Source of the DNA: Escherichia phage vB_EcoM_SHAK7163
Strand: one strand, 5' to 3'
DNA length: 44,656 bases
Sequence record: OR594179
Shown here: one piece after another, positions 1 through 44,656 of the stretch
How the letters are laid out: each line of letters begins with the position of its first letter
Numbering within the stretch: the stretch's first letter is position 1
Notes under the pieces: generated by a model
What the model was told of the DNA's origin: nothing
Seen by the model: the letters and a program-made list of their open reading frames with translations, nothing else
Database searches by the model: none
Made by a program: the position numbers and the translations under genes

Positions 1-332
1 CCTAGGTTATAGCTTAGTAGACTACCTAGGTTGTACTTAGTTGGGTGGCTTAGTAACAGCTTAGTAATGTACCTTAGTTAGTCTTAGTGTCAGACCTCAG
101 TGATTGCACATGCAAGCATGTAAGATGCTAATAGGTCGCGGTCGGTAGACCGCTAAGAAGAAGTAATAGTAATAAGATGCAGTAGGAGGAACACCAGAAA
201 CCTAGCCAACCTAGCCTATCCTAGCTCTGTATCTCTTGCTTCTTCCTTAGTCTCACATGTTAGACAACCTAGGTTTACCTTAGTAGTTGTGACATGTATC
301 ACATAAATAATCTATCTTAGTGAAACTTAGTG

Positions 333-361
333 TTGACACAGGCAATCAACAAGTATACATT
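333..361 (+). promoter_or_regulatory. candidate host sigma70-type early promoter (TTGACA-N17-TACATT)
   Basis: TTGACA at 333-338, 17-bp spacer, TACATT at 356-361, upstream of the first early ORFs; T7-like phages start infection from host-RNAP promoters at the left end. Confidence 0.4.
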
Positions 362-510
362 AGCAATCACTGAGACGGACCTAGCAAGCTGTCTCAGGTT
401 ATAAGCAGGAGAATTGATGCGTAAGCCATAGCTAGTGGATGTAGTCGCATGAAGGCTTGAGTAAGGGCCGTTTAATACCTTCTTCCTCTGGAGACAACGC
501 TTATAACACC

Positions 511-526
511 GCTCTTTAACAATCTG
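511..526 (+). repeat. conserved early-intergenic motif GCTCTTTAACAATCTG, copy 1 of 4 (candidate RNase III processing site)
   Basis: Near-identical 16-17 nt motif present once in each of four consecutive early intergenic regions, each flanked by complementary arms. Confidence 0.4.
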
Positions 527-581
527 CTTAGTGTAACCTATGTATGCCGTGGTTAATTACTTATTGAATGAGGTATTAACT

Positions 582-713
582 ATGAGTTTAGCAACGCTGA
601 GTTATGAAGAAATGTATGCAGCCTACTACAACGCATTAGATGAAGGAGAAGAAGCATTGACCTTCGCTGAGTTTATGGAGGCTTTATGGAGTTTCTATCA
701 TGACTCTAAATAA
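582..713 (+). CDS. hypothetical early protein (43 aa)
   Basis: ATG preceded by GAGGT SD-like sequence; below the 60-aa cutoff of the ORF track; acidic small protein. Confidence 0.35.
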   Translation: MSLATLSYEEMYAAYYNALDEGEEALTFAEFMEALWSFYHDSK

Positions 714-876
714 CCGTGAACTATCCGTTCTCTTCACTCTGTTATGTTACATGATTCGTAATAACGAATTACTTACAGATGACGAGATGGCACTATATCA
801 CCGCTTTCTTAACGAAGGTTGGACAGATACAGTTAACCAGAAACGTGACTTGATGAAGGAGTTAGGCAATGTATAA
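700..876 (+). CDS. hypothetical early protein (58 aa)
   Basis: ORF overlapping neighbours by a few codons, typical of packed T7-like early regions; weak SD. Confidence 0.3.
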   Translation: MTLNNRELSVLFTLLCYMIRNNELLTDDEMALYHRFLNEGWTDTVNQKRDLMKELGNV

Positions 877-1078
877 GCATGAGATTTACACGGCTTGCAA
901 TAAATCGGCTAAGGTTATCATTGAGATGTACAAGGCAGAATGTCAGGCGTACAACCTCAATGATGGTACCGAGATGTTTTATCTTCAGTTTGAAAGCAAG
1001 TTATCTCACAAACGAGTGATTAGCAGTCTTAATCAACACTCTTTAGATTGGGAAGAAGTGAACAGCAATAAACTTTAA
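869..1078 (+). CDS. hypothetical early protein (69 aa)
   Basis: ORF with AGGAG SD 7 nt upstream. Confidence 0.5.
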   Translation: MYKHEIYTACNKSAKVIIEMYKAECQAYNLNDGTEMFYLQFESKLSHKRVISSLNQHSLDWEEVNSNKL

Positions 1079-1148
1079 ATTAACTATTGACAGCCACGGC
1101 ATACAAGGTTACATTAAGCATCAAGACGGCGACGTCTTTAAACATCCC

Positions 1149-1165
1149 GCTCTTTAACAATCTGG
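1149..1165 (+). repeat. conserved early-intergenic motif, copy 2 of 4
   Basis: GCTCTTTAACAATCTGG; preceded by hairpin AAGACG-GCGA-CGTCTT. Confidence 0.4.
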
Positions 1166-1204
1166 CTAGTGCCTTGGTAGGCTAACTACTTACTAAGGTG
1201 AACT

Positions 1205-1417
1205 ATGAACTACTGCGACATCGCTCACGAATTACGCATGGAACGTGAGAAACAAGAAAGGCGTATTATCAAGAAGATGGCTGTACTGCTTGCACACTAT
1301 AAGGCAGACAAACAGCCAACACATGATGAGTTCGTTGACTTCTGTAACATGTATCTTAATGTGAGTAAGGCCACTGGTTACAGATGGCTTAAAGCACTGA
1401 ATGATGGAGAATTGTAG
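1205..1417 (+). CDS. hypothetical early protein (70 aa)
   Basis: ORF with AAGGTG SD; follows conserved intergenic motif. Confidence 0.5.
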   Translation: MNYCDIAHELRMEREKQERRIIKKMAVLLAHYKADKQPTHDEFVDFCNMYLNVSKATGYRWLKALNDGEL

Positions 1418-1460
1418 TAATAAGCCAGCTTAATAGCTGGCCTATCAAGGCACTAACCTA

Positions 1461-1477
1461 GCTCTTTAACAATCTGG
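1461..1477 (+). repeat. conserved early-intergenic motif, copy 3 of 4
   Basis: GCTCTTTAACAATCTGG lying in the loop between complementary arms CCTATCAAGGCAC and GTGTCTTGATAGG. Confidence 0.45.
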
Positions 1478-1516
1478 TTTGTGTCTTGATAGGCTTACTA
1501 ACAAAGGTGAACTATC

Positions 1517-1681
1517 ATGACTAACGCACAACGTAAACGCTATGATGCATTGCAAGAGAAACTTGCTGTTGCTTATGCCGCTTGGCAAGCTAACACAGAC
1601 AAGAGCAAACACGATAAACTTTATAGTAAAGTGGTTGCAATTAATGCTAAAATAGATAAACTTGTGAATAGTATCTTATAA
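1517..1681 (+). CDS. hypothetical early protein (54 aa)
   Basis: ATG after AAAGGTG SD; below ORF-track cutoff. Confidence 0.4.
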   Translation: MTNAQRKRYDALQEKLAVAYAAWQANTDKSKHDKLYSKVVAINAKIDKLVNSIL

Positions 1682-1723
1682 GATAGTTGCTGGCACTAGC
1701 CAGCCTATCAAGGCACAAGCCAC

Positions 1724-1740
1724 GCTCTTTAACAATATGG
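1724..1740 (+). repeat. conserved early-intergenic motif, copy 4 of 4
   Basis: GCTCTTTAACAATATGG preceded by hairpin GCTGGC-ACTA-GCCAGC and arm CCTATCAAGGCAC. Confidence 0.4.
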
Positions 1741-1830
1741 GTAGTCGCTTCTTAGTCTGGATAGGTTAAACCTAGGGTGTTCTTTTGAGTGCCCTATAAT
1801 GTAACCTAACTAACTAATGAGGATTAAATC

Positions 1831-2160
1831 ATGGAACGTAACGCTAACGCTTACTACAACCTTCTGGCTGCAACTGTTGAAGCATTCAACGAGCGCATCA
1901 AGTACGATGAGATTCGTGAAGATGATGATTACTCTGATGCACTGCATGAGGTTGTAGATAGCATGGTGCCAGTTTATTACAGCGAAATCTTTACTGTGAT
2001 GGCTGCTGATGGCATTGATGTTGATTTTGAAGATGCTGGTTTGATTCCTGATACGAAGGATGTAACCAAGATTCTACAAGCTCGCATCTATGAAGCTCTT
2101 TATAATGATGTACCAAATGACAGCGATGTAGTTTGGTATGAAGGCGAAGAAGAGGAATAA
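1831..2160 (+). CDS. ocr: Ocr-like anti-restriction protein (T7 gene 0.3 homolog, DNA mimic)
   Basis: 109 aa; IKYDEIREDDDYSDALHE...YYSEIFTVMAADGIDVDFEDAGLIPDTKDVTKILQARIYEAL matches remembered T7 Ocr (IRYDDIRDTDD...PDTKDVIRILQARIYEQL); strongly acidic with EGEEEE terminus. Confidence 0.85.
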   Translation: MERNANAYYNLLAATVEAFNERIKYDEIREDDDYSDALHEVVDSMVPVYYSEIFTVMAADGIDVDFEDAGLIPDTKDVTKILQARIYEALYNDVPNDSDVVWYEGEEEE

Positions 2161-2354
2161 TAAGATGGAAAGGCAATATAACTTCATATTTTCAGACGGT
2201 GTAACCCTGAAATGTTCCTTACGATTTGCGCAGATTCGTGAGGAAGTGCTAGGTACTACATACAAACTATTTAGCTGACACTATAAGAGAAGGCTTAACA
2301 AGGCGTTGCTACGGTAGCGCCTGATTAAACTTTCACTTACTAGGAGTTAAGATT

Positions 2355-2582
2355 ATGGATTTAGATAGCATCATTATGGCGTTTGCTCTTATTGGCTTAA
2401 GCTGGTGCTCCTATCACCTTTACCGTGAGTTCTTATTTGATAAAGCTAAACGCAAACTAAGAAAGGAAGGCGGTAATTACCTTTGTGTAAGAGGTGGGCT
2501 TGTAGAATACATTGCACCTAACGGCACGGAATGCGCCATTAGCAAAGATGTATTTATAGAAACGTGGCATTACATCAAGTAA
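2355..2582 (+). CDS. small early membrane protein (75 aa)
   Basis: Strong SD TAGGAG; hydrophobic N-terminal segment IIMAFALIGLSW. Confidence 0.55.
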   Translation: MDLDSIIMAFALIGLSWCSYHLYREFLFDKAKRKLRKEGGNYLCVRGGLVEYIAPNGTECAISKDVFIETWHYIK

Positions 2583-2646
2583 CTAGCCTATAGCCTGCAT
2601 GTGTGGGCTATGTGATATTTACTTATCACTATATAAGGTGACTATT

Positions 2647-3570
2647 ATGACTACTGAAAACATCCTCCTGTCTGTCCGTGAAGCTGCAACCGCTGAGATT
2701 AAGCAGCATTTGGATAATATCGGTACTTCTTACATCAAAGTTGGCGCTTGTCTGAATGAATTACGCGGTGATTTCGAAGGTCAAAAAGACTTTTTAGCTT
2801 ATGTAGAATCAGAGTTCGGCATCAAGAAAGCACAATGCTACAAGCTGATGAGTGTAGCCCGTGTCTTTGAAGGAGACGAACGCTTTAAAGGTGTGGCTAT
2901 GCGTGTAATGCTGGCGCTTGTTCCTTTCGCTGATGAAAATATAATCATGGAGAAGGCCGCAGAACTCGCCGCAGATGGCAAGCTGGACACTAACGCCGTA
3001 AACGCCCTGATTGATCCTAAGAAAGAGACAAAGACTGAAACGGTACAATCTAAGGCTGAGGCGGTAAAACCGCAGGAGAATGCGAATGAGGCCGCAGAAA
3101 CTATGCAAGGACATGCGACCTTTGAGAATTTCATCTTAGAGAAGGCGAAAGAGGAGTTACAAAGTGTGCCGCCAGTAAGTGAGTCGGGTAACGACGAATC
3201 CGCACCGTGGGATGAGGAAAGCAAGCCGGAAGCGCCAAAGGCAGCGCCGCTGGATAACACGGCTAATACCGAAAACGCCGCTATGGCTAGCCTCTTAGCA
3301 CAAATTAAGGCACTGACTGAGCAATTACAGGCAGCTAATGACCGCATCGCCTCCTTAAGTAGCGCACGCGAAAGCAAGAAGGCAGCCGCACCTATGCTGC
3401 CGCAATTCAAATCTTCCTGCTTCTATGCTCGCTTAGGTTTAAGCGCTGAGGAGGCAACGAAGAAAACAGCAGTTAACAAGGCACGCCGCGAACTGGTTAA
3501 GCTAGGCTATGGTGAAGGCCATGAAGCATGGCCCTTAATCTCTGAGGCAGTAGAAGAGTTGACTAAGTAA
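2647..3570 (+). CDS. hypothetical early protein (307 aa), function unknown
   Basis: ATG with AAGGTG SD (track ORF starts upstream at 2599 without SD); low-complexity A/E/K-rich central region; occupies the slot just before the RNAP gene. Confidence 0.55.
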   Translation: MTTENILLSVREAATAEIKQHLDNIGTSYIKVGACLNELRGDFEGQKDFLAYVESEFGIKKAQCYKLMSVARVFEGDERFKGVAMRVMLALVPFADENIIMEKAAELAADGKLDTNAVNALIDPKKETKTETVQSKAEAVKPQENANEAAETMQGHATFENFILEKAKEELQSVPPVSESGNDESAPWDEESKPEAPKAAPLDNTANTENAAMASLLAQIKALTEQLQAANDRIASLSSARESKKAAAPMLPQFKSSCFYARLGLSAEEATKKTAVNKARRELVKLGYGEGHEAWPLISEAVEELTK

Positions 3571-13362: not shown

Positions 13363-13740
13363 ATGTCTATGGTAACTACTCTGGTATTCGTGGCTCAATA
13401 CTTTCGTGGTCTTGCTAATAAGTTCAAGTCCAAGGCTATCAAAGCTATTGAGGCTCGCATCGAAGCAGTACAGGCAGAGCAAGTTAAAGTTGAAGAACAT
13501 CGTAGTTCTCAAATGATTGACTGTCATAACCGCTACTATGCATCTCGTGATGAACTAAATGCACGTCAAGTCAAAGAGGTAGAAGATATGCTGGCACGTC
13601 ACCAGCAAGAGCGTGACAGCCTGAAAGCTGAATTTGAAGAGAACAAGGCATCAATTGCTCTTGTAAATCAAGCTGCATCTGACAGCCTGAAGAAAGAGAT
13701 TGTTATGCTGGAAATAGAACTGGACAACTTGACTAAATAA
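13363..13740 (+). CDS. hypothetical protein (125 aa), predicted coiled coil
   Basis: SD TAGGAG; heptad-like charged sequence. Confidence 0.55.
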   Translation: MSMVTTLVFVAQYFRGLANKFKSKAIKAIEARIEAVQAEQVKVEEHRSSQMIDCHNRYYASRDELNARQVKEVEDMLARHQQERDSLKAEFEENKASIALVNQAASDSLKKEIVMLEIELDNLTK

Positions 13741-13746
13741 GGGGTT

Positions 13747-14046
13747 ATGATGGAAGAAGTGATTCAAGCTAAACATGTAGGTATCATCTTTCGTGATCTA
13801 GAGCAGCGTAAAGTTGCAGGTCACACTCGTCTGGCTAAAGAAGACGATACAGCAATCACTACTGTGGAACAAGCAGATGCCTATCGTGGTCCAGAGTTTA
13901 CTCAAGGTGAAACTTGTCATCAATTGAGCCTTTCACTTTGTGACACTATGGCTAGTGTAAATGTACAAGAGGTTGAAGATGGTGAATGTGTTAGTTATGT
14001 CTACCCTCTCGATACTATTGCACGTATTAAGGTAGTTCATAAGTAA
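13747..14046 (+). CDS. hypothetical protein (99 aa)
   Basis: ORF with AAGGGG upstream. Confidence 0.5.
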   Translation: MMEEVIQAKHVGIIFRDLEQRKVAGHTRLAKEDDTAITTVEQADAYRGPEFTQGETCHQLSLSLCDTMASVNVQEVEDGECVSYVYPLDTIARIKVVHK

Positions 14047-14067
14047 TTACTGGACACTATAGAACAA
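14045..14067 (+). promoter_or_regulatory. phage RNAP promoter
   Basis: AATTACTGGACACTATAGAACAA. Confidence 0.65.
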
Positions 14068-14123
14068 TAGGTCGGCTTAGTTCGGCCTATGATTGTGTAG
14101 TGTAACAATAGGAGACTAAATAA

Positions 14124-14930
14124 ATGGCACGTGGTGATTTTGATTTTGGTGCTCAGGTTACTAAATCTGAAGGTAAAGTCTTTAAGAATCCAGAAGTAGG
14201 TGATCATGAAGCAGTAATCTCTGGCATCATTCATGTTGGTTCCTTCCAAGACATCTTTAAGAAAGGTAATACCACTGAAGTTAAGAAGCCAGCAAACTTT
14301 GTTCTGGTTAAGATTGTCCTGATGGGTGACGATGACAAGAACGAAGATGATTCTCGCATGGAACAATGGATGGCTGTGCCTCTGAAGTCTGGTGATAAGG
14401 CAACACTGACTAAGTTCCTGAATGCAGTTGACCCTAAAGAGTTGCTGGGTGGCTTTGATGATTTTATCGGTGAATGTCTGACTGCAACTATGGTTGGCTC
14501 TGGCGACAAGAATGATGATGGTACTTTCAAGTATGTTAACTGGAAAGGCTTTGGCGGTATGCCTGATAAGTTGAAGAAGCTTGTACTGGCTCAGGTAGAA
14601 GAGGAAGGTCTGTCTATGACAGGTCATATAACCTTCGACAAGCTGACCAAAGAAATCCTTGATGACATCCCAGCTAACTTGGTACGTCAATACTTCCTGA
14701 ACGAGACACCTCGTGGTAAGAACCTGTCTGTTGCTGGCTCTCACGTAGAAGCTATTATCAAAGCTGCTCGTGAAGAAGACCCTGAATGGAAGAAGGCTAA
14801 GAAGAAAGACGAGGAAGATGCTACCCCAGCTAATCGTAAATCTCTGGATACTGGTGAGTCTGTTCCACAGGAAGTACCTGAAGCAGAAGACACTCCTGCA
14901 CCGGAGATGGATGAGGACGCGGAATATTAA
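14124..14930 (+). CDS. putative ssDNA-binding protein (gp2.5-like by position and acidic C-tail)
   Basis: 268 aa; SD TAGGAG; C-terminal tail EDTPAPEMDEDAEY is acidic with a terminal aromatic residue as in T7 gp2.5; no direct sequence match recalled. Confidence 0.5.
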   Translation: MARGDFDFGAQVTKSEGKVFKNPEVGDHEAVISGIIHVGSFQDIFKKGNTTEVKKPANFVLVKIVLMGDDDKNEDDSRMEQWMAVPLKSGDKATLTKFLNAVDPKELLGGFDDFIGECLTATMVGSGDKNDDGTFKYVNWKGFGGMPDKLKKLVLAQVEEEGLSMTGHITFDKLTKEILDDIPANLVRQYFLNETPRGKNLSVAGSHVEAIIKAAREEDPEWKKAKKKDEEDATPANRKSLDTGESVPQEVPEAEDTPAPEMDEDAEY

Positions 14931-14939
14931 GGAGAACGG

Positions 14940-15158
14940 ATGAAAGTACAAATCGTAACTCTGCATTGCAAGAAAGGAATCACCACACTTGGCGGCAATA
15001 CTTTTCACTCCTTCTCTGAAGGGGAGACATACGCCGACCTTCACTATATCTGGCGTGACGGGCAGCACGTGGTGAACTACAGCGACCCTGCGACTGGTAA
15101 ACGCCACGGCGTGTCGCTTCCGGCGCATGACATTGCTCAGGTGAACACAGTTTTATAA
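14940..15158 (+). CDS. hypothetical protein (72 aa)
   Basis: SD AAGGAG. Confidence 0.5.
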   Translation: MKVQIVTLHCKKGITTLGGNTFHSFSEGETYADLHYIWRDGQHVVNYSDPATGKRHGVSLPAHDIAQVNTVL

Positions 15159-34600: not shown

Positions 34601-34968
34601 ACCAAGATGAATACTTGGAAGAGAAGTTATCGCCTAAAGGGTTGGCCTTTGGTGCAATGGGTATGATGAGTACAACTGCTGTATTTAGTCTAGGTGGAGA
34701 TTTCTTAGGTGGCCTAGGTGTTCTGCCCTCTGAGTTAGTACAATCCCGTTATGAGGCTGGCTTTCAGACTAGGGGTTTGATAGACCAAATACCACTAGTA
34801 GGTGTTGGTCAAGATGCATATCGTTTAGCAGATTCTATAACTAAATATGCAGAGGGTGATACAGAAGGTGTAGATGTGGCACGTAGGGCTTTACGCTTAG
34901 TGCCTCTAACTAATGTAATAGGAATACAGAACGCATTGCGTTATGGCTTAGATGAACTGGAGGATTGA
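31648..34968 (+). CDS. internal virion protein (gp16-like, large)
   Basis: 1106 aa, positional equivalent of T7 gp16; no lytic transglycosylase motif recognised. Confidence 0.7.
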   Translation: MEQDIKTNWAGYVQSTPEPFSIEAAPVSAPTIRQRNELQEQVLEAKADADILGAVGAAFQNEWLAFGGKRWYDRATADFTPQPDFEIQPEQREALRFKYGTDMMQTITEGVRSEDELNFRIQNADEDLERNKRIAQAGWVGSVATIGAAVLDPVGWVASIPTGGAAKVGLVGRAVRGAIAAGVSNAAIESVLVQGDMTRDLDDIMVALGSGMAMGGVIGAVARGRATKLSEQGDDRAASVVRSADAGDRYVRAVADDSIGAMRVKGEEVLTEGAFDISSKGEDLLKTLQREGNAIDMTPRRWAGTMSALGTVVHSSQDASVRGLGARLFESPQGLGMQKASASLMQNTNLNRLKSADMNRFNDGFDLWLKENNINPVSGHTNSHYVQQYNEKVWEAVRIGMDESTPKSIRMAAEGQQAMYREALALRKRSGEAGFENIKADDKYMPDIFDTMKARRQFDRIGKDIDKEDIIELFSRAYQNGSRKIPKEVADDIARAQVNRVADATLTGQLSFEKAMSGQTKAEYEALMRKAGFSDEEIEKMVEALDNKETRDNISNRAKMSLGLDVTQEYNGIRMRDFMNTNVEELTDNYMKEAAGGAALARQGFSTYQAALNAIDLVERNARNAAKDTKAHAQFEAESAKIRQSEPDYKKAQEKIEELKKQLKLKEKDEAAGLAIDEEIRQMREGLRLIMGKSIDADPQALSTKMLRRGRDITGVLRLGQMGFAQLGELANFMGEFGIAATTIALGKQFRFTSKALRSGDGFFRDKNLAEVERMVGYIGEDNWLTTKGARPDEFGDVTTVRGMMAHFDQSMNSIRRAQTNLSLFRMAQGSLERMTNRQIALSFIDHLEGKKIIPQKKLEELGLTQEFMTNLQKHYDANSKGSGLLGFDTMPYAMGETLANAIRRKSGLIIQRNFIGDEGIWMNKALGKTFAQLKSFSLVSGEKQFGRGIRHDKIGLAKKTAYGFALGSIVYAAKAYVNSIGREDQDEYLEEKLSPKGLAFGAMGMMSTTAVFSLGGDFLGGLGVLPSELVQSRYEAGFQTRGLIDQIPLVGVGQDAYRLADSITKYAEGDTEGVDVARRALRLVPLTNVIGIQNALRYGLDELED

Positions 34969-35930
34969 TGAGTTATACTTTCACAGAACATATAGCCAAC
35001 GGTACGCAAGTAACCTATCCCTTTAGCTTTGCTGGCAGGGATAAAGGCTATCTTCGTGCCTCAGATGTGATAGTGGAATCTCTTCAAGGTAACACTTGGA
35101 TTGAGATTACATCTGGCTGGCAATTAACTGGTACGCATCAAATCACTTTTGATGTAGCACCAGTTGCAGGTTTGAAGTTCCGTATTCGAAGGGAAGTACA
35201 AAAAGAATATCCATACGCTGAGTTTGACCGTGGTGTTACCTTGGATATGAAGTCTTTAAATGGTTCTTTCATTCATATACTGGAGATTACACAGGAGTTA
35301 CTTGATGGGTTTTATCCAGAAGGGTACTTCATTAAGCAGAATGTAAGCTGGGGCGGCAATAAGATTACTGACCTAGCTGATGGTGAGAATCCAAAAGATG
35401 CAGTAAATAAATCACAGCTAGATGCTATCGACAAGAAGCATACTGATTGGAACTCTGCACAAGATATAGAGATTGCTGGTATTAAGAGAGGGATGGTGTC
35501 TGGTGTATCGCATCGAACTATTCCTTGGTATATGGTTGCCTCCGGTGGAGAGCAAATCATTCGACCACCTTACTCCTTTGATGATGCTATGGTGTTTATA
35601 AACGGTGTATTCCAGCATGAACTAGCAGGTGCAGTATCCGTGGGGTATGATGTTATAACCCTGTCCGAGCCATTACAGGCTGGGGATGAAGTTTATGTGC
35701 TTATCGGTAGTCGCTTAACCCCACCTACAAGTGCGGATACTATCCTCTTTACACAAGCAGTGAGTGAAGGTACACAATCTATCGACATTGTAACGGCTTT
35801 CCAACGTCTTGATGTATATTTGGATGGACTGTATCAACCTAATAATACTTATGAAATCGTAGGCTCTACTATCACTTTCAGTGAGCCATTGCCTGAGTGT
35901 GTCGTAAGTATGAAGTTACAACTAGTGTAA
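34968..35930 (+). CDS. tail fibre adapter (T7 gp17 N-terminal domain-like, lacks receptor-binding part)
   Basis: 320 aa; KFRIRREVQKEYPYAEFDRGVTLDMKSLN...GNKITDLADGENPKDAVNKSQLDAI resembles remembered T7 gp17 N-terminus (ELRRVTSTTDRLVDFTDGSILRAYDLN...GRRIVNLANAVDDRDAVPFGQLKTM). Confidence 0.75.
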   Translation: MSYTFTEHIANGTQVTYPFSFAGRDKGYLRASDVIVESLQGNTWIEITSGWQLTGTHQITFDVAPVAGLKFRIRREVQKEYPYAEFDRGVTLDMKSLNGSFIHILEITQELLDGFYPEGYFIKQNVSWGGNKITDLADGENPKDAVNKSQLDAIDKKHTDWNSAQDIEIAGIKRGMVSGVSHRTIPWYMVASGGEQIIRPPYSFDDAMVFINGVFQHELAGAVSVGYDVITLSEPLQAGDEVYVLIGSRLTPPTSADTILFTQAVSEGTQSIDIVTAFQRLDVYLDGLYQPNNTYEIVGSTITFSEPLPECVVSMKLQLV

Positions 35931-36134: not shown

Positions 36135-36417
36135 ACATGCAGCTACGGAAGACGAGGTTGGCATTCTACATGGTGCTATTACCAAAATCTTTAATAAGAA
36201 AGCACAGGCAATACTGGACACTATAGAAGAAGACCCAGATGCAGCACTGCATTTAGTCTCTGGTAAAGACATTGGGGCTATGTGTAAGTGGGTTCTTGAT
36301 AATGGTATTACCGCTACACCCGCTGCACAGCAGGAGGAGTCCAAGCTATCTAAGCGCCTCAAGGCTATCCGAGAGGCATCAAGTGGCAAGATCATCCAAT
36401 TCACTAAGGAGGATTGA
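36118..36417 (+). CDS. putative terminase small subunit (gp18 position)
   Basis: GTG start 5 nt after GGAGGAGG (track ORF begins at upstream ATG 36073); located immediately before the large terminase gene. Confidence 0.5.
   Translation: MSVHNKHAATEDEVGILHGAITKIFNKKAQAILDTIEEDPDAALHLVSGKDIGAMCKWVLDNGITATPAAQQEESKLSKRLKAIREASSGKIIQFTKED
36209..36231 (+). promoter_or_regulatory. phage promoter-like sequence inside small-terminase coding region
   Basis: CAATACTGGACACTATAGAAGAA; core conserved, -17..-14 diverged; encodes ...ILDTIEE... Confidence 0.45.
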
Positions 36418-38312
36418 TGGCTAAGGCAAGAGAATCACAAGCGGAGGCTCTTGCCAGATGGGAGATGCTACAGGAGTTACAGCAGACTTTTCCGTATACG
36501 GCGGAAGGTTTGCTTCTCTTTGCAGATACAGTTATCCATAACTTGATTGCAGGCAACCCTCATCTGATTCGTATGCAGGCCGATATTTTAAAGTTTCTAT
36601 TCTATGGACATAAATATCGCCTCATCGAAGCGCCCCGTGGTATCGCTAAGACAACACTATCAGCAATCTATACGGTATTCCGTATTATTCATGAACCGCA
36701 TAAGCGTATCATGGTTGTGTCCCAAAACGCCAAGCGAGCAGAGGAAATCGCAGGCTGGGTAGTTAAAATCTTCCGTGGCTTAGACTTTCTTGAGTTTATG
36801 CTGCCGGATATCTACGCTGGGGACCGTGCATCCGTTAAGGCGTTTGAGATTCATTACACCCTACGTGGTAGTGATAAGTCTCCTTCTGTATCCTGTTACT
36901 CAATCGAAGCAGGTATGCAGGGTGCTCGTGCTGATATTATTCTAGCAGATGACGTAGAATCGATGCAGAATGCTCGTACAGCGGCAGGACGTGCCTTGCT
37001 TGAGGAACTGACCAAGGAGTTTGAATCTATTAACCAGTTTGGTGATATTATCTACCTTGGTACTCCTCAGAACGTAAACTCTATCTACAATAACCTACCT
37101 GCACGTGGTTACTCTGTTCGTATCTGGACTGCACGTTATCCCTCAGTGGAGCAGGAGCAATGCTATGGTGACTTCCTTGCACCTATGATTGTGCAGGATA
37201 TGAAGGACAACCCAGCACTTCGCTCAGGGTATGGCTTGGATGGCAATAGTGGTGCCCCTTGTGCACCTGAAATGTATGATGATGATGTGCTGATTGAGAA
37301 GGAAATCTCGCAGGGTGCGGCTAAGTTCCAGCTTCAGTTTATGCTTAACACTCGCATGATGGATGCTGACCGCTATCCGCTACGCCTGAACAACCTCATC
37401 TTCACTTCATTCGGTACAGAGGAAGTCCCTGTGATGCCTACATGGAGCAACGACTCTATTAACATCATTGGCGATGCACCGAAGTATGGCAATAAGCCTA
37501 CAGACTTTATGTATCGCCCTGTGGCCCGACCTTATGAGTGGGGCGCTGTTACCCGTAAGATTATGTATATTGACCCAGCGGGTGGCGGTAAGAACGGGGA
37601 CGAAACAGGCGTATCGATTGTCTTCCTGCACGGCACATTCATTTACGTGTACCAGTGCTTCGGTGTGCCAGGTGGATACCGAGAATCGTCCCTGAATCGC
37701 ATTGTGCAGGCCGCAAAGCAGGCAGGTGTTAAAGAGGTATTCATTGAGAAGAACTTTGGTCATGGCGCGTTTGAGGCCGTTATAAAGCCATACTTTGAAC
37801 GAGAGTGGCCTGTGACTCTGGAGGAAGATTACGCCACCGGACAGAAAGAGTTGCGTATCATTGAAACACTAGAGCCACTAATGGCGGCCCACAGGCTCAT
37901 CTTCAACGCAGAGATGGTCAAGTCTGATTTTGAGTCGGTACAGCACTATCCGCTTGAACTACGCATGTCATACAGCCTTTTCAATCAAATGTCGAACATC
38001 ACGATTGAGAAGAACAGCCTACGACACGATGACCGCTTAGACGCTCTGTATGGCGCTATACGGCAATTAACTTCTCAAATAGACTATGACGAGGTTACAC
38101 GGATTAATCGCCTCAGAGCGCAGGAGATGCGCGATTACATCCATGCTATGAACACACCTCACCTCCGTAGGGCAATGCTCTATGGAGATTATGGCACTGA
38201 GCGAAGAGTAACCAACACTTCCGTGGCTATGCAGCAAAGAGTATACGGTCAGAATTACAGGAGTAAATCGGCAAGCAGAAATACACTTTCTGCAAGGATT
38301 TCAAGGATTTAG
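36417..38312 (+). CDS. terminase large subunit (gp19-like)
   Basis: 631 aa from ATG overlapping upstream stop; Walker A-like EAPRGIAKTT; position. Confidence 0.9.
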   Translation: MAKARESQAEALARWEMLQELQQTFPYTAEGLLLFADTVIHNLIAGNPHLIRMQADILKFLFYGHKYRLIEAPRGIAKTTLSAIYTVFRIIHEPHKRIMVVSQNAKRAEEIAGWVVKIFRGLDFLEFMLPDIYAGDRASVKAFEIHYTLRGSDKSPSVSCYSIEAGMQGARADIILADDVESMQNARTAAGRALLEELTKEFESINQFGDIIYLGTPQNVNSIYNNLPARGYSVRIWTARYPSVEQEQCYGDFLAPMIVQDMKDNPALRSGYGLDGNSGAPCAPEMYDDDVLIEKEISQGAAKFQLQFMLNTRMMDADRYPLRLNNLIFTSFGTEEVPVMPTWSNDSINIIGDAPKYGNKPTDFMYRPVARPYEWGAVTRKIMYIDPAGGGKNGDETGVSIVFLHGTFIYVYQCFGVPGGYRESSLNRIVQAAKQAGVKEVFIEKNFGHGAFEAVIKPYFEREWPVTLEEDYATGQKELRIIETLEPLMAAHRLIFNAEMVKSDFESVQHYPLELRMSYSLFNQMSNITIEKNSLRHDDRLDALYGAIRQLTSQIDYDEVTRINRLRAQEMRDYIHAMNTPHLRRAMLYGDYGTERRVTNTSVAMQQRVYGQNYRSKSASRNTLSARISRI

Positions 38313-39056: not shown

Positions 39057-39749
39057 ATGCTGGGAGTAACAGGACAACGCAATAAGAATGTAGCCACCAA
39101 AGTAGTGGCTGATTTAGCTACTGCTGCTACTGTCGAGGAATTACGAGATCAACATAGCTCTATTAACCGTGCTGACCTTTCTGGTAAACAAGAAGGCTCC
39201 GCTGTTATTGTTAAGAAAGAAGATGGGAATTATTCTATCTTTGTAGCAACAGGAAGCAAGCCGACTGATGTGTGGAAAGAGTTGTCTCCAACAATACCAG
39301 AGCAAGAGATGCCTGCTGAATATATTGATATGATTGATGTTCAAATTCATCAAGATTCTGCAAGCAACTTACGTATAGACTCTTCTCGCACTAGTTTAAT
39401 ACAGACACCAATGTGGGATACTGAAGGTGAGTTGTTATTCCGTAATACACTAAGTGCAACATGTTCTTGTACTATTCTTGTTGTTGAGGGTGAGTCTGGT
39501 GTTCGTCAGGATTTTACTTTTAAGATTAATGGACTTTTAGAGCAGGAAGAGCAGTATTATGATATTGACACACTTATGTGCTCTATTCACTCTGCAACAA
39601 CAACTAATGGCCTTACTTTGTGTATGCCAGATGCTAAAAGTGCAAAGACTAATAAAGTGGTAGTTAAGATCGACACTATGCAGTCATTAGCTATGAGCTT
39701 TGATCTTAACTTCCTTGTAGAATGGACGTCACCAACGAGGTTACTATAA
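39057..39749 (+). CDS. hypothetical protein, paralog 3 with C-terminal extension (230 aa)
   Basis: SD AGGAG; N-terminal LSGKQEGSAVIVKKEDGNYSIFVATGSKPTDVWKEL paralogous to previous two; additional 150-aa C-terminal domain. Confidence 0.6.
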   Translation: MLGVTGQRNKNVATKVVADLATAATVEELRDQHSSINRADLSGKQEGSAVIVKKEDGNYSIFVATGSKPTDVWKELSPTIPEQEMPAEYIDMIDVQIHQDSASNLRIDSSRTSLIQTPMWDTEGELLFRNTLSATCSCTILVVEGESGVRQDFTFKINGLLEQEEQYYDIDTLMCSIHSATTTNGLTLCMPDAKSAKTNKVVVKIDTMQSLAMSFDLNFLVEWTSPTRLL

Positions 39750-40093
39750 TGCTAAATCAGTACTTCAAGCGTAAAGAATTTGCTTGCCGTTGTGGGTGCG
39801 GTACATCCACTGTTGATGCTGAGTTACTACAGGTAGTAACAGATGTGCGTGAGCACTTTGGTACTCCTGTTGTTATCACTTCTGGTCATCGCTGCGCCAA
39901 GCACAATGCTAATGTAGGTGGGGTTAATAACTCCATGCATCTTACTGGTAAGGCTGCTGACATTAAAGTGTCTGGCATATTACCTTCTGAAGTGCATAAG
40001 TATCTTACTAGCAAATACAAAGGCAAGTATGGTATCGGTAAGTATAACTCCTTCACCCACATCGATGTACGGGATGGTTGTGCGCGATGGTAA
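39749..40093 (+). CDS. endolysin, peptidase M15-type (zinc L-Ala-D-Glu/D-Ala-D-Ala peptidase fold)
   Basis: 114 aa; SGHRCAKHNANVGGVNNSMHLTGKAADI...FTHIDVRDG fits the M15 H..D..H zinc-binding signature; ATG overlaps upstream stop. Confidence 0.75.
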   Translation: MLNQYFKRKEFACRCGCGTSTVDAELLQVVTDVREHFGTPVVITSGHRCAKHNANVGGVNNSMHLTGKAADIKVSGILPSEVHKYLTSKYKGKYGIGKYNSFTHIDVRDGCARW

Positions 40094-40218
40094 GATGTGT
40101 TGAATGGTGTGAGCGTATGGTTGCCCAAGCTGCCGAGGATGGCAACTATGATGACTGGAAGAACTACTCTGACTTGTTAGCTCAATGGAAAGGGAGATGC
40201 AATGAAAAAGCTGTTTAA
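40087..40218 (+). CDS. hypothetical small protein (43 aa)
   Basis: ORF only; below track cutoff. Confidence 0.25.
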   Translation: MVRCVEWCERMVAQAAEDGNYDDWKNYSDLLAQWKGRCNEKAV

Positions 40219-40351
40219 GTCTAAGAAGGTTGTAGGTGCACTGGTTGCACTTGTTATTGCTCTTGTTTCTGTAGGTCTTGGTGTAGACCTTGGCTCTGGC
40301 ACGGAATCCTCTGTGACAGATGTGGTCTGCCAAGTGATTACCTGTGAATAA
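40202..40351 (+). CDS. small membrane protein (49 aa), lysis-cluster associated
   Basis: SD GGGAG; MKKLFKSKK then hydrophobic VVGALVALVIALVSVGLGV. Confidence 0.4.
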   Translation: MKKLFKSKKVVGALVALVIALVSVGLGVDLGSGTESSVTDVVCQVITCE

Positions 40352-40565
40352 GTTTCTAGAAGTGCTGGCAGGTCTTATTGGCCTGCTTGTCTCTGCTAAG
40401 AAGAAACAAGAAGAGAAGGAGGCACAAAGTGAAGCGAATCATGCTAGCGACAACCCTGCTGATTGGTTCGCTGATCATTTCAGGGTGTCAGACGGCGTTA
40501 CCAGAGAATCCAAAGGTGAAGCCTCTGAAGCCGACGCTTACGGCAGTCTACGAGGTGGACGATAA
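40344..40565 (+). CDS. candidate i-spanin (Rz-like), short
   Basis: GTG start; N-terminal TM FLEVLAGLIGLLVSA then charged periplasmic-like region; contains the lipoprotein ORF in another frame. Confidence 0.35.
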   Translation: MNKFLEVLAGLIGLLVSAKKKQEEKEAQSEANHASDNPADWFADHFRVSDGVTRESKGEASEADAYGSLRGGR

Positions 40566-40638
40566 AGTCTGCTTCAGTAAGCCTGACGCTACAAAATTAG
40601 GTCTGTACATTCTCTCGCTAGAACGAGGGTATAATTAA
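40429..40638 (+). CDS. candidate o-spanin (Rz1-like outer-membrane lipoprotein)
   Basis: GTG 7 nt after AGGAGG; signal peptide with lipobox LIISGC; proline-rich PENPKVKPLKPT; overlapped with the Rz-like ORF. Confidence 0.55.
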   Translation: MKRIMLATTLLIGSLIISGCQTALPENPKVKPLKPTLTAVYEVDDKVCFSKPDATKLGLYILSLERGYN

Positions 40639-40667
40639 TACATAGTTTTATGTATCAGTGTCTTACG

Positions 40668-40690
40668 ATTTACTGGACACTATAGAAGAG
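40668..40690 (+). promoter_or_regulatory. phage RNAP promoter upstream of tailspike module
   Basis: ATTTACTGGACACTATAGAAGAG (exact consensus). Confidence 0.8.
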
Positions 40691-40769
40691 ATAAGATAGT
40701 GCCGTTCTTTTGAGCGGCATATTACTAGCCAATCTTCATAGGGAGGATTGGGAAGTAATAGGAGAGTAT

Positions 40770-41105
40770 ATGGCTAAGTTAACTAAACCCAAGACAACTG
40801 GCTTACTACATAGAGATACTGTACTAGCTACATTATTGGACAATTTACTATCTAAAAGGCGTGTTACATTTGAAGGTGTAGTTCCAAGTGAAGATACTAA
40901 AATTGAGATAGAAGTACCTGCAACAGGAGATTTAGATTCTTCGTGGGCATCACTTGTATCATTAAGTACACCTACACTTTGTACAGCTTGGATTACTAAA
41001 GTGTCAGATACTAGATTAGAAGTACATGTGTTCCATACAGCACAAGTTGAAATAGACATAGATGTAGATGTTTACATTCTAGGTAAACACATTGTCAGTG
41101 CGTAA
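40770..41105 (+). CDS. hypothetical protein (111 aa) immediately upstream of tailspike
   Basis: ATG after GGAGAG (track ORF begins upstream at 40710); no motifs recognised. Confidence 0.55.
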   Translation: MAKLTKPKTTGLLHRDTVLATLLDNLLSKRRVTFEGVVPSEDTKIEIEVPATGDLDSSWASLVSLSTPTLCTAWITKVSDTRLEVHVFHTAQVEIDIDVDVYILGKHIVSA

Positions 41106-41172
41106 GCACTGCTTTTCGCGCAACTTTTCTTAAAGGTTATCATGATGGTAGCCTTTCAGAAAAGGAGGTTAT

Positions 41173-43608
41173 ATGATTCAAAGACTAGGTTCTTCATTAG
41201 TTAAATTCAAGAGTAAAATAGCAGGTGCAATCTGGCGTAACTTGGATGACAAGCTCACCGAGGTTGTATCGCTTAAAGATTTTGGAGCCAAAGGTGATGG
41301 TAAGACAAACGACCAAGATGCAGTAAATGCAGCGATGGCTTCAGGTAAGAGGATTGACGGTGCTGGTGCTACTTACAAAGTAACATCTTTACCTGATATG
41401 GAGCGATTCTATAATACCCGCTTCGTATGGGAACGTTTAGCAGGTCAACCTCTTTACTATGTGAGTAAAGGTTTTATCAATGGTGAACTATATAAAATCA
41501 CGGACAACCCTTATTACAATGCTTGGCCTCAAGACAAAGCGTTTGTATATGAGAATGTGATATATGCACCCTACATGGGTAGCGACCGTCATGGTGTTAG
41601 TCGTCTGCATGTATCATGGGTTAAGTCTGGTGACGATGGTCAAACATGGTCTACACCAGAGTGGTTAACTGATCTGCATCCAGATTACCCTACAGTGAAC
41701 TATCATTGTATGAGTATGGGTGTATGTCGCAACCGTCTGTTTGCCATGATTGAAACACGTACTTTAGCCAAGAACGAACTAACCAATTGTGCATTGTGGG
41801 ATCGCCCTATGTCTCGTAGTCTGCATCTTACTGGTGGTATCACTAAGGCTGCAAATCAGAGATATGCAACAATCCATGTACCAGATCACGGACTATTCGT
41901 GGGCGATTTTGTTAACTTCTCTAATTCTGCGGTAACAGGTGTATCAGGTGATATGACTGTTGCAACGGTAATAGATAAGGACAACTTCACGGTTCTTACA
42001 CCTAACCAGCAAACTTCAGATTTGAATAACGATGGAAAGAGTTGGCACATGGGTACTTCTTTCCATAAGTCTCCATGGCGTAAGACAGATCTTGGTCTAA
42101 TCCCTCGTGTCACAGAGGTGCATAGCTTTGCTACTATTGATAACAATGGCTTTGTTATGGGTTATCATCAAGGTGATGTAGCTCCACGAGAAGTTGGTCT
42201 TTTCTACTTCCCTGATGCTTTCAATAGCCCATCTAATTATGTTCGTCGTCAGATACCATCTGAGTATGAACCAGATGCGGCAGAGCCGTGCATCAAGTAC
42301 TATGACGGTGTATTATACCTTATCACTCGTGGCACTCGTGGTGACAGACTTGGAAGCTCTTTGCATCGTAGTAGAGATATAGGTCAGACTTGGGAGTCAC
42401 TGAGATTTCCACATAATGTTCATCATACTACCTTACCTTTTGCTAAAGTAGGAGATGACCTTATTATGTTTGGTTCAGAACGTGCAGAAAATGAATGGGA
42501 AGCAGGTGCACCAGATGATCGTTACAAGGCATCTTATCCTCGTACCTTCTATGCACGATTGAATGTAAACAATTGGAATGCAGATGATATTGAATGGGTT
42601 AACATCACAGACCAAATCTATCAAGGTGACATTGTGAACTCTAGTGTAGGTGTAGGTTCTGTTGTAGTTAAAGACAGCTACATTTACTATATCTTTGGTG
42701 GAGAAAACCATTTCAACCCAATGACTTATGGTGACAACAAAGATAAAGACCCATTTAAAGGTCATGGACACCCTACTGATATATACTGCTATAAGATGCA
42801 GATTGCAAACGACACTCGTGTATCTCGTAAGTTCACATATGGTGCAACACCTGGTCAGGCCATCCCTACTTTTATGGGTACTGATGGTGTACGAGATATT
42901 CCTGCACCTTTGTACTTCTCAAATGACATCACTACCGAGGATGCTAAAGTTGGACACTTGACTCTCAGAGCAACTACCAGTTCCAACATTAGGTCTGAAG
43001 TGCAGATGGAAGGTGAGTACGGCTTTATTGCTAAGGCTGTTCCAAAGACTAACCCATCAGGTCAACGTTTACTTCTTTGTGGTGGAGAAGGGACTTCATC
43101 TTCCACAGGTGCACAGATAACGTTGCATGGCGCTAATTCAAGTAATGCTAAGCGTATCACTTATAACGGAAGTGAGCACCTATTCCAAGGTGCACCAATC
43201 ATGCCTGCTGTAGATAACCAGTTTGCTGCTGGCGGACCTAGTAACCGATTCACTACTATCTACTTAGGTAGTGACCCTGTTACCACTTCCGATGCTGACC
43301 ATAAGTATGGTATCTCTGGTATTGACACCAAGGTATTAAAGGCTTGGAGTCGTGTTGGCTTCAAACAGTACGGTCTGAATAGTGAAGCAGAGAGGAACCT
43401 TGATAGCATACACTTCGGTGTCTTGGCTCAGGATATTGTAGCTGCTTTTGAAGCTGAAGGGTTGGATGCCATTAAGTATGGAATTGTGTCCTTCGAAGAA
43501 GGTAGATACGGTGTGAGATACAGTGAAGTTCTAACCCTAGAGGCTGCCTATACTCGCCATCGTCTTGATAAATTAGAGGAGATGTATACCACTAATAGAA
43601 TCAGTTAA
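41173..43608 (+). CDS. tailspike: sialidase-like (endosialidase-type) capsule depolymerase with C-terminal autoproteolytic chaperone domain
   Basis: 811 aa; SD AAAGGAGG; N-terminal DFGAKGDGKTND; two Asp-box/BNR motifs SGDDGQTW (41626-41649) and SRDIGQTW (42370-42393); S-D-x-x-x-K autocleavage-type motif TSDADHK at 43288-43305. Confidence 0.85.
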   Translation: MIQRLGSSLVKFKSKIAGAIWRNLDDKLTEVVSLKDFGAKGDGKTNDQDAVNAAMASGKRIDGAGATYKVTSLPDMERFYNTRFVWERLAGQPLYYVSKGFINGELYKITDNPYYNAWPQDKAFVYENVIYAPYMGSDRHGVSRLHVSWVKSGDDGQTWSTPEWLTDLHPDYPTVNYHCMSMGVCRNRLFAMIETRTLAKNELTNCALWDRPMSRSLHLTGGITKAANQRYATIHVPDHGLFVGDFVNFSNSAVTGVSGDMTVATVIDKDNFTVLTPNQQTSDLNNDGKSWHMGTSFHKSPWRKTDLGLIPRVTEVHSFATIDNNGFVMGYHQGDVAPREVGLFYFPDAFNSPSNYVRRQIPSEYEPDAAEPCIKYYDGVLYLITRGTRGDRLGSSLHRSRDIGQTWESLRFPHNVHHTTLPFAKVGDDLIMFGSERAENEWEAGAPDDRYKASYPRTFYARLNVNNWNADDIEWVNITDQIYQGDIVNSSVGVGSVVVKDSYIYYIFGGENHFNPMTYGDNKDKDPFKGHGHPTDIYCYKMQIANDTRVSRKFTYGATPGQAIPTFMGTDGVRDIPAPLYFSNDITTEDAKVGHLTLRATTSSNIRSEVQMEGEYGFIAKAVPKTNPSGQRLLLCGGEGTSSSTGAQITLHGANSSNAKRITYNGSEHLFQGAPIMPAVDNQFAAGGPSNRFTTIYLGSDPVTTSDADHKYGISGIDTKVLKAWSRVGFKQYGLNSEAERNLDSIHFGVLAQDIVAAFEAEGLDAIKYGIVSFEEGRYGVRYSEVLTLEAAYTRHRLDKLEEMYTTNRIS

Positions 43609-43806
43609 GCAATCTGCTGTACGCCAGAACACAGAAGAGCTTATTCAATCATGACGTGACCCTAAGCAAGCCTATGCGATTGCCAAGGATGTACAACGTC
43701 GTACCATGAAGAAACCTTCTGCATCTTCTGCGTAAGCAGGTTAATATCTTAGTGTACACAAGGGCAGACCTAGGTTTGCTCTTAGTGTATTTACAATGGA
43801 GGTCTT

Positions 43807-43887
43807 ATGTATATACCTATGGAAGCAATAGTAGGTGGCCTATGCTTGTTGATAGGTTTCGTTATAGGCTTAATAGCAAACCCTTAG
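43807..43887 (+). CDS. possible tiny hydrophobic peptide (26 aa)
   Basis: Strong SD GGAGG 5 nt before ATG; MYIPMEAIVGGLCLLIGFVIGLIANP; very short, unverified. Confidence 0.2.
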   Translation: MYIPMEAIVGGLCLLIGFVIGLIANP

Positions 43888-43942
43888 TCCTGTACAAGGA
43901 TTAACCAAAGTCAAAATTTTGATATAGGCGTGTGTCAGCTCT

Positions 43943-44252
43943 CTCGCCCTCGCCCTCGCCGGGTTGCCCCCCCCCCCCATAGGGTGGCCTGAGGGAATCC
44001 GTCTTCGACGGGCAGGGCTGATGTACTCCTTGTACTAGCTTAGTAGTACACAAGGGCTGGCCGTACTAGTTAGCTGGTACAGCCTAGTCTTTGCTCATGT
44101 ACTAGCAAGGTGGAACGCGGTAGACGGCCTAGGACAGCCTAGGAATGGCTTAGTGGTGGACAAGGTGATTACCTTAGTGAAGCCTCTTAGTGCATTCCTG
44201 AGGCCATTCAGGGCGTTTATGAGGGATTGACAGGGTGGGTGTGGGTGGGCTA
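43943..44252. repeat. 310-bp unit, copy 1 of exact tandem duplication (probable terminal repeat, right-end copy)
   Basis: 43943-44252 is identical base-for-base to 44253-44562; flanking bases differ immediately on both sides. Confidence 0.9.
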
Positions 44253-44562
44253 CTCGCCCTCGCCCTCGCCGGGTTGCCCCCCCCCCCCATAGGGTGGCCT
44301 GAGGGAATCCGTCTTCGACGGGCAGGGCTGATGTACTCCTTGTACTAGCTTAGTAGTACACAAGGGCTGGCCGTACTAGTTAGCTGGTACAGCCTAGTCT
44401 TTGCTCATGTACTAGCAAGGTGGAACGCGGTAGACGGCCTAGGACAGCCTAGGAATGGCTTAGTGGTGGACAAGGTGATTACCTTAGTGAAGCCTCTTAG
44501 TGCATTCCTGAGGCCATTCAGGGCGTTTATGAGGGATTGACAGGGTGGGTGTGGGTGGGCTA
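44253..44562. repeat. 310-bp unit, copy 2 of exact tandem duplication (probable terminal repeat, left-end copy)
   Basis: Identical to 43943-44252; contains C12 tract, (CTCGCC)3 and G-tract cluster GGGTGGGTGTGGGTGGG. Confidence 0.9.
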
Positions 44563-44656
44563 TCTGTTCGTTTCGCTACGCTTCACTCACTGCTCCTCAC
44601 TTCGTTCGTCGCTGCGGCAGCTTGATGTGTACCTTAAGTTATTCCTTGATGGATAG

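Follow-up and report, generated by a model that had tools for sequence, protein, structure and literature searches.

The closest described counterparts of the protein examined here are the gp47 endosialidases of phages K1E (endoNE, YP_425027) and K1-5 (YP_654148). These work with the adaptor gp37 (PMC6966330, PMC5696595), through which both gp46 and gp47 are attached to the virion (Leiman et al. 2007, as cited in PMC6966330). The two phages differ in host range, K1-5 infecting both K1 and K5 strains and K1E, whose gp46 is truncated and inactive, infecting K1 strains only (PMC6966330). The K1E enzyme, shown to cleave alpha-2,8-polysialic acid endolytically as a homotrimer, degrades the K1 capsule in vitro and aggregates as an 18-mer, and the recombinant protein runs at 76 kDa after proteolysis (PMC5696595).

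Another relative, endoNF of phage K1F (structures 1V0E, 3GVJ-L, 3JU4 and 3GW6), is a protein of 1064 aa that binds the tail directly through a T7 gp17-like N-terminal domain. Its active-site triad has been named as E581/R596/R647 (PMC2955717), and it is cut immediately N-terminal to S911, with K916 deprotonating the serine (PMC3828593). Other tail fibers with such a domain (phi29 gp12, 3GUD; T5 pb1, 4UW8; GA-1; MYRF) are related to the gp47 described below only in their C-terminal ~70–140 residues (E 1e-8 to 1e-12), and their passenger domains are unrelated; like gp47, however, they carry an S74 domain that directly follows a trimeric beta-helical stalk and has a Ser-x4-Lys dyad at its start.

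The window, that is, the whole stretch of DNA that was analyzed (44,656 nucleotides), is an entire genome of a Vectrevirus (SP6-like podophage), collinear at 93–97% with those of T145P2, K1E, ULINTec4, and others. By its sequence, the gp47 that it encodes is an ortholog of the K1E and K1-5 endosialidases ('endoNE' type). The three have in common their genus and their place after the lysis cassette and gp46 (in the window, genes for an M15 endolysin, a holin, and an Rz-like spanin lie upstream), as well as domain order, Asp-boxes, catalytic triad, and Ser706/Lys711.

Architecture and allele status of gp47

The gp47 open reading frame is preceded by a ribosome-binding site, AAGGAGG, at 41162–41168, and can be divided into the following features (window coordinates):

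41173..43608, + strand: gp47 endosialidase (endo-N-acetylneuraminidase) tailspike precursor, 811 aa, ATG start
41173..41286, + strand: short N-terminal segment, residues 1–38, preceding the crystallized part; presumed gp37 docking (after PMC6966330)
41287..41478, + strand: endosialidase N-terminal extension (End_N_terminal), residues 39–102; PF12218, E=4.2e-35
41479..42807, + strand: catalytic beta-propeller (End_beta_propel), residues 103–545; PF12217, E=7.9e-223
41812..42060, + strand: lectin-like beta-barrel (End_beta_barrel), residues 214–296, inserted in the propeller; PF12195, E=4.3e-47
42808..43287, + strand: stalk/tailspike domain (End_tail_spike), residues 546–705; PF12219, E=1.4e-81
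43288..43605, + strand: C-terminal intramolecular chaperone domain (Peptidase S74), residues 706–811; PF13884
42283..42285, 42328..42330 and 42481..42483, + strand: catalytic codons of E371, R386 and R437, respectively, from the endoNF alignment

All five endosialidase Pfam domains score above their gathering thresholds and stand in the canonical order. The propeller match reaches 739.5 bits against a cut-off of 24 and covers the whole profile (1–367), and the Peptidase_S74 match (residues 706–763) reaches 39.1 bits against a cut-off of 22. When PDB sequences were searched, residues 38–705 matched the catalytic part of endoNF (1v0e, 3gvj/k/l, 3ju4) with E=0, the stalk aligning with the C-terminal ~160 residues of the 1v0e/3gvl chain; the endoNF fragment that keeps the C-terminal chaperone domain (3gw6) was matched with E=8e-59, and residues ~640–800 gave weaker matches to the chaperone domains of phi29 gp12 (3gud), T5 pb1 (4uw8), and other tailspikes.

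An earlier note on this DNA had proposed a sialidase beta-propeller with the length and layout of the K1E and K1-5 endosialidases, and had suggested a protein search against such enzymes; the propeller and endoNF matches given above, together with the full-length alignments described below, bear out each of these points. The three motifs on which that reading was based also lie exactly where the note had placed them, in frame: the Asp-boxes SGDDGQTW (41626–41649, residues 152–159) and SRDIGQTW (42370–42393, residues 400–407), and SDADHK (43288–43305, residues 706–711). Two strict Asp-boxes (S.D.G..W) arise with a frequency of ~5e-5 among residue shuffles of gp47, and the six frames of the 44.6-kb window hold no further uninterrupted Asp-box. 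Neither the antisense open reading frames inside gp47 nor a minus-strand frame of 363 aa at 14037–15128 gave a family match, and all of these were treated as shadows of + strand genes.

Residues were mapped from gp47 to endoNF through a K1F-type homolog of 1064 aa (P0004). In this alignment, E371/R386/R437 of gp47 correspond to the endoNF triad E581/R596/R647, and the stalk residues R632, S643, and Q648 match endoNF R837, S848, and Q853; H140 and K200 are present as well. We take these last five to mark further functionally important residues of endoNF, those in the stalk binding polysialic acid. Gp47 thus combines the propeller, nested barrel, N-terminal extension, stalk, two Asp-boxes, and Glu/Arg/Arg set of the bacteriophage endosialidase family, which is presumably CAZy family GH58. 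Over the crystallized catalytic part, it is ~83% identical to endoNF at the amino acid level and resembles it in propeller, barrel, stalk, active-site residues, and the Ser-Lys self-cleavage dyad. The two proteins differ at their ends: gp47 has a 38-aa docking peptide that would need the gp37 adaptor in place of a gp17-like domain, and its chaperone domain of 106 aa (about 154 aa in endoNF) is only ~37% identical to that of endoNF. A five-residue insertion at 587–591 further distinguishes gp47.

Megablast against phage genomes aligned 100% of the gene at 95–96% nucleotide identity with T145P2, PhiNW-E1, AAPEc6, ULINTec4, K1-5, and K1E, and full-length matches at 95–96% include the original GenBank records of 'phage K1 endosialidase' as well. 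The protein is 96.8% identical to its ortholog in AAPEc6, 96.4% to that in T145P2, 95.8% to that in K1E, 95.4% to that in K1-5, and 93.8% to that in ACG-C91; all five orthologs are 811 aa long, with zero indels. A search of a collection of 15 billion proteins gave no identical entry, so that gp47 represents a new allele of a described gene. Its orthologs count among the most thoroughly studied phage depolymerases. The biology of such a protein is already known, since the enzyme family, structure, self-cleaving chaperone, and adaptor mounting have been worked out in orthologs that are at least 95% identical. What is new is minor, namely the unrecorded exact protein and a mosaic stalk segment. 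As an additional endosialidase allele for polysialic-acid tools, gp47 has modest practical value.

A mosaic stalk segment

Divergence of gp47 from K1E and K1-5 is uneven: the docking peptide and propeller differ by less than 2%, the stalk by 13–14%. There are 34 substitutions relative to K1E and 37 relative to K1-5, two thirds of which fall in the stalk and early chaperone domain; of the 34, 23 are in residues 546–705, and residues 1–38 are the same in all three proteins. The nucleotide identity profile delimits the following segment:

42797..43376, + strand: mosaic segment of ACG-C91-type ancestry, gene nt 1625–2204, aa ~542–735

Upstream of this segment, gene nt 1–1624 are 98–100% identical to K1-5, AAPEc6, and T145P2, and nt 1–116 are 100% identical to K1E, K1-5, AAPEc6, and T145P2 versus 67% identical to ACG-C91. 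Within nt 1625–2204, identity is 81–90% to K1E, K1-5, AAPEc6, and T145P2 versus 95–99% to ACG-C91, and the remaining 230 nt at the 3' end are mostly closest to K1E again. Besides the stalk, this segment includes the cleavage site and ~30 residues at the start of the chaperone domain. At the protein level, 22 residues of gp47, mostly stalk residues, are unlike all four of K1E, K1-5, AAPEc6, and T145P2; 19 of these 22 are common to ACG-C91, leaving T71, S667, and T806 as the only residues unique relative to the five orthologs. The endosialidase of vB_EcoP_ACG-C91 (YP_006987816) is, like that of the window, an 811-aa protein in a K1E-type context with a 111-aa gp46; it departs from the window gene over the first 1270 nt (67–90% nucleotide identity) and, within the docking segment, in 8 of the first 21 residues. 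The ACG-C91 endosialidase is itself annotated by similarity only.

Judged by this profile, the gp47 gene is a mosaic, nearest to ACG-C91 in the stalk segment and to K1-5 and AAPEc6 elsewhere, and it represents ordinary module shuffling among Vectrevirus endosialidases. A stronger reading would see a natural chimera, in which a K1-5/AAPEc6-type docking peptide and catalytic head sit on an ACG-C91-type stalk and cleavage site, with altered polysialic-acid binding, processivity, or trimer stability; we consider such a functional change improbable. The 18-mer aggregation of the K1E enzyme does make trimer stability a real variable, and if the stalk swap were to alter any of these properties, the protein would offer a ready-made natural experiment on the contribution of the stalk.

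A related alternative is that gp47 is an endosialidase homolog whose recombinant stalk has changed its substrate preference or processivity, for example, in its behavior on O-acetylated K1 or on the K92 polymer (alternating alpha-2,8/2,9). The origin of the stalk and of the first ~30 chaperone residues in another, ACG-C91-like lineage, as well as the concentration of differences from K1E in residues 546–705, speak for this idea. However, gp47 retains the counterparts of endoNF R837/S848/Q853 in its stalk, its propeller and barrel are 97–99% identical to those of K1E and K1-5, and ACG-C91 has the same architecture, all of which make such a change improbable.

Adaptor, gp46 slot, and predicted host range

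The elements of the window that bear on the mounting and expression of gp47 are as follows:

34968..35930, + strand: gp37 tail adaptor, 318/320 aa (99.4%) identical to K1E gp37
40668..40688, + strand: ATTTACTGGACACTATAGAAG, an SP6-like phage RNA polymerase promoter preceding gp46-gp47; function inferred
40770..41105, + strand: gp46 of the K1E type, 111 aa, a truncated remnant in the second tailspike slot; phrog_15083, E=2e-73
41096..41172, + strand: gp46/gp47 junction, 77 bp, with hairpin, CTTTT, and the ribosome-binding site AAGGAGG at 41162–41168

The predicted adaptor matches phrog_2710 (tail fiber, E=2.2e-149) and contains a T7 gp17-like N-terminal domain (Phage_T7_tail, PF03906; 27.8 bits against a cut-off of 25.2), a domain for which gp47 itself gave no Pfam match. 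The locus thus shows the components of a K1E-type, adaptor-mounted system—a gp47 without a gp17-like N-terminal domain, a separate gp37, and a gp46 of 111 aa—and has this 111-aa frame where the dual-specificity system of K1-5 has a full-length K5 lyase.

The SP6 promoter consensus is matched eight times in the window, each time on the + strand (chance expectation, 0), and a scan of 40000–44656 found sigma-70 promoters and intrinsic terminators no richer than in shuffles. Transcription of gp46-gp47 would accordingly be better explained by the SP6-like promoter at 40668 than by sigma-70. Between the two genes, a hairpin (CAGTGC-GTAA-GCACTG, 41096–41111) that holds the gp46 stop codon in its loop is followed by CTTTT. 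The junction is near-invariant across six phages (the window, K1E, K1-5, AAPEc6, T145P2, and ACG-C91) despite their differing upstream genes, and may be a cassette boundary or a terminator.

The gp46 of the window is 97% identical (108/111) to that of K1E, and resembles the 632-aa K5 lyase gp46 of K1-5 only in its first ~10 aa (MAKLTKP...). Since gp46 is a K1E-type stub and not a K5 lyase, the predicted host range is confined to K1-capsulated E. coli, like that of K1E, and does not extend to K5 strains as that of K1-5 does; the K1 host prediction of the earlier note is supported, with the refinement to K1 alone. In many of the records matched by megablast, the host is an E. coli K1 strain, and close relatives were isolated on K1 strains. 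The annotation would translate into a confident receptor and host call, namely E. coli K1, the capsule type of neonatal meningitis and ExPEC, and it assigns the phage to the K1E single-specificity type; such information is useful for the design of phage-therapy cocktails.

A dual K1 and K5 host range was considered and rejected on account of the 111-aa gp46. More generally, a phage of K1-5-like dual specificity would carry a second active depolymerase (a K5 lyase or other enzyme), with K1 making up only part of its host range. The closest relatives of gp47 do have a large second tailspike gene upstream, encoding a 632-aa K5 lyase in K1-5 and AAPEc6 and a different product of ~500 aa in T145P2. 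In the window, however, the slot is occupied by a near-copy of the inactive K1E stub, and no other tailspike-sized open reading frame lies between the lysis genes and gp47, so that a second specificity is very unlikely.

Predicted self-cleavage and proposed mechanism

The earlier note had also read SDxxxK as the dyad of a self-cleaving chaperone that would be released as a C-terminal fragment of about 12 kDa. As the string is present in ~18% of residue shuffles of gp47 (P about 0.18), it is weak by itself and needed independent support, which comes from two sides: the motif is position 1 of the Peptidase_S74 match (PF13884), and it aligns with residues 911–916 of 3gw6. In that alignment, T705, S706, and K711 (codon 43303–43305) of gp47 stand column for column with endoNF T910, 911, and 916, the ...PVTT-S-DADH-K... 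of gp47 lying opposite ...PIVT-A-NGER-K... of the uncleavable S911A mutant in 3gw6. T705 also occupies the column at which every mature crystallized endoNF chain ends. Gp47 thus presents both the domain homology of Peptidase S74 and a Ser-Lys dyad at the boundary between stalk and chaperone domain, and the proposed motif is upheld. The predicted scissile bond is T705|S706, with S706 as nucleophile and K711 as general base. By the alignment to endoNF S911, K1E endoNE would be cut at Ser706 as well.

The computed products are a mature chain of 705 aa (78.5 kDa) and a released fragment of 106 aa (11.97 kDa), the latter agreeing with the size that the earlier note had expected; these predicted masses are consistent with the 76-kDa band of the K1E enzyme after proteolysis. 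That the C-terminal domain instead stays uncleaved as a permanent distal receptor-binding knob, with a coincidental SDxxxK, is hardly credible: the frequency of the string in shuffles would allow it, but the motif opens a significant Peptidase_S74 match in register with the experimentally defined endoNF dyad, the crystallized mature endoNF chains stop precisely at the counterpart of T705, and the K1E enzyme runs at its post-proteolysis size (PMC5696595).

Almost certainly, then, gp47 would be the endosialidase tailspike of a K1E-like Vectrevirus, acting through precursor processing, docking on gp37, and cleavage of the K1 capsule, in steps that rest on orthologs 83–97% identical. The sequence itself offers no evidence to the contrary. 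The 811-aa precursor would trimerize with the aid of its C-terminal 106-aa chaperone domain. Once the trimeric stalk has folded, Lys711 is expected to activate Ser706 for attack on the Thr705-Ser706 bond, a step for which both motif and domain are present, and the cleavage would release the 12-kDa fragment and leave a stable mature chain of 78.5 kDa. By analogy with K1E, the short N-terminal segment would then dock the trimer on gp37, with six copies per tail, while the neighboring tailspike slot would, again as in K1E, be held only by the 111-aa gp46 stub, the genes for both being present. On the cell, alpha-2,8-polysialic acid would be bound by the beta-barrel and stalk and cut endolytically at the active site of the propeller (E371/R386/R437), so that the virion could tunnel across the K1 capsule and reach the outer membrane.

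Probable genome ends and terminal repeat

The right end of the window carries a perfect tandem duplication:

43943-44252, first 310-bp unit
44253-44562, second 310-bp unit

Alignment to the right end of phage K1E stops at base 44252 of the window, and bases 44430-44654 align with the left end of K1E (K1E bases 154-382), with the alignment resuming at window base 3. K1E itself possesses a direct terminal repeat of 288 bp. Because of this duplication, the two end alignments, and the terminal repeat of K1E, the window looks like a linear genome in circularly permuted form, with its real ends at 44252|44253 and its two 310-bp terminal repeats apparently fused head to tail.

Sequences flanking the tailspike genes

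One feature precedes the endosialidase gene, gp47, and another overlaps its end:

41096-41172, gp46-gp47 junction, containing the hairpin CAGTGC-GTAA-GCACTG followed by CTTTT, with the stop codon of gp46 (the upstream K1E-type stub) in the loop
43586-43735, ORF '48', SP6 gp51-like, broken in the window

The junction is conserved in six phages despite three different genes upstream, and it may represent a recombination boundary of tailspike cassettes, a transcriptional or RNA-processing signal, or both. In T145P2, the nearest relative of the window in whole-genome identity, the gp46 slot (within bases 1-3000 of the T145P2 sequence) holds an ORF of approximately 500 aa that shares the MAKxTKP N-terminus and differs in the remainder, presumably a second tailspike of other specificity.

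At the other side, phages K1-5, AAPEc6, and ACG-C91 carry ORF '48' as a 49-aa frame that overlaps the 3' end of gp47, whereas in the window it is disrupted by loss of the start codon (ATG to ATA) and by an internal TGA. A single base change accounts for both the lost start and T806, one of three gp47 residues unique relative to five orthologs. The K1E version likewise has a stop inside the ORF; ORF '48' is either dispensable or not a genuine gene.

Terminase region and the ORFs at 13-15 kb

Four further regions were catalogued:

36414-38312, large terminase, single uninterrupted ORF of 632 aa
38654-39749, gp41-like ORF and 230-aa ORF between terminase and endolysin (the latter at 39057-39749, phrog_32357)
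13363-13740, 125-aa ORF matching phrog_7450 over its full length
14037-15128, minus strand, 363-aa ORF; all other genes of the genome lie on the plus strand

The terminase gene is intact in the window and likewise unsplit in K1-5, whereas in K1E gene 40.5, which encodes a putative homing endonuclease, divides it into 40A and 40B. In the following interval, K1E and K1-5 encode gp41/gp42 proteins of approximately 92-96 aa (RefSeq label "acetyl-CoA acetyltransferase"). The 230-aa form, which had no match in Pfam, is common to some coliphages (G3A1, EEc4, and SHAK7704; 92-98% identity) and also occurs in Citrobacter phage CrRp3 (89% identity).

The 363-aa minus-strand ORF, for which Pfam and PHROG searches returned no match, overlaps a plus-strand gene (14124-14930) matching phrog_862, and is most likely a shadow ORF. 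The phrog_7450 label of the 125-aa ORF, "polysaccharide chain length determinant protein" (category moron/host-takeover), is odd for an early or middle gene in a capsule-targeting phage.
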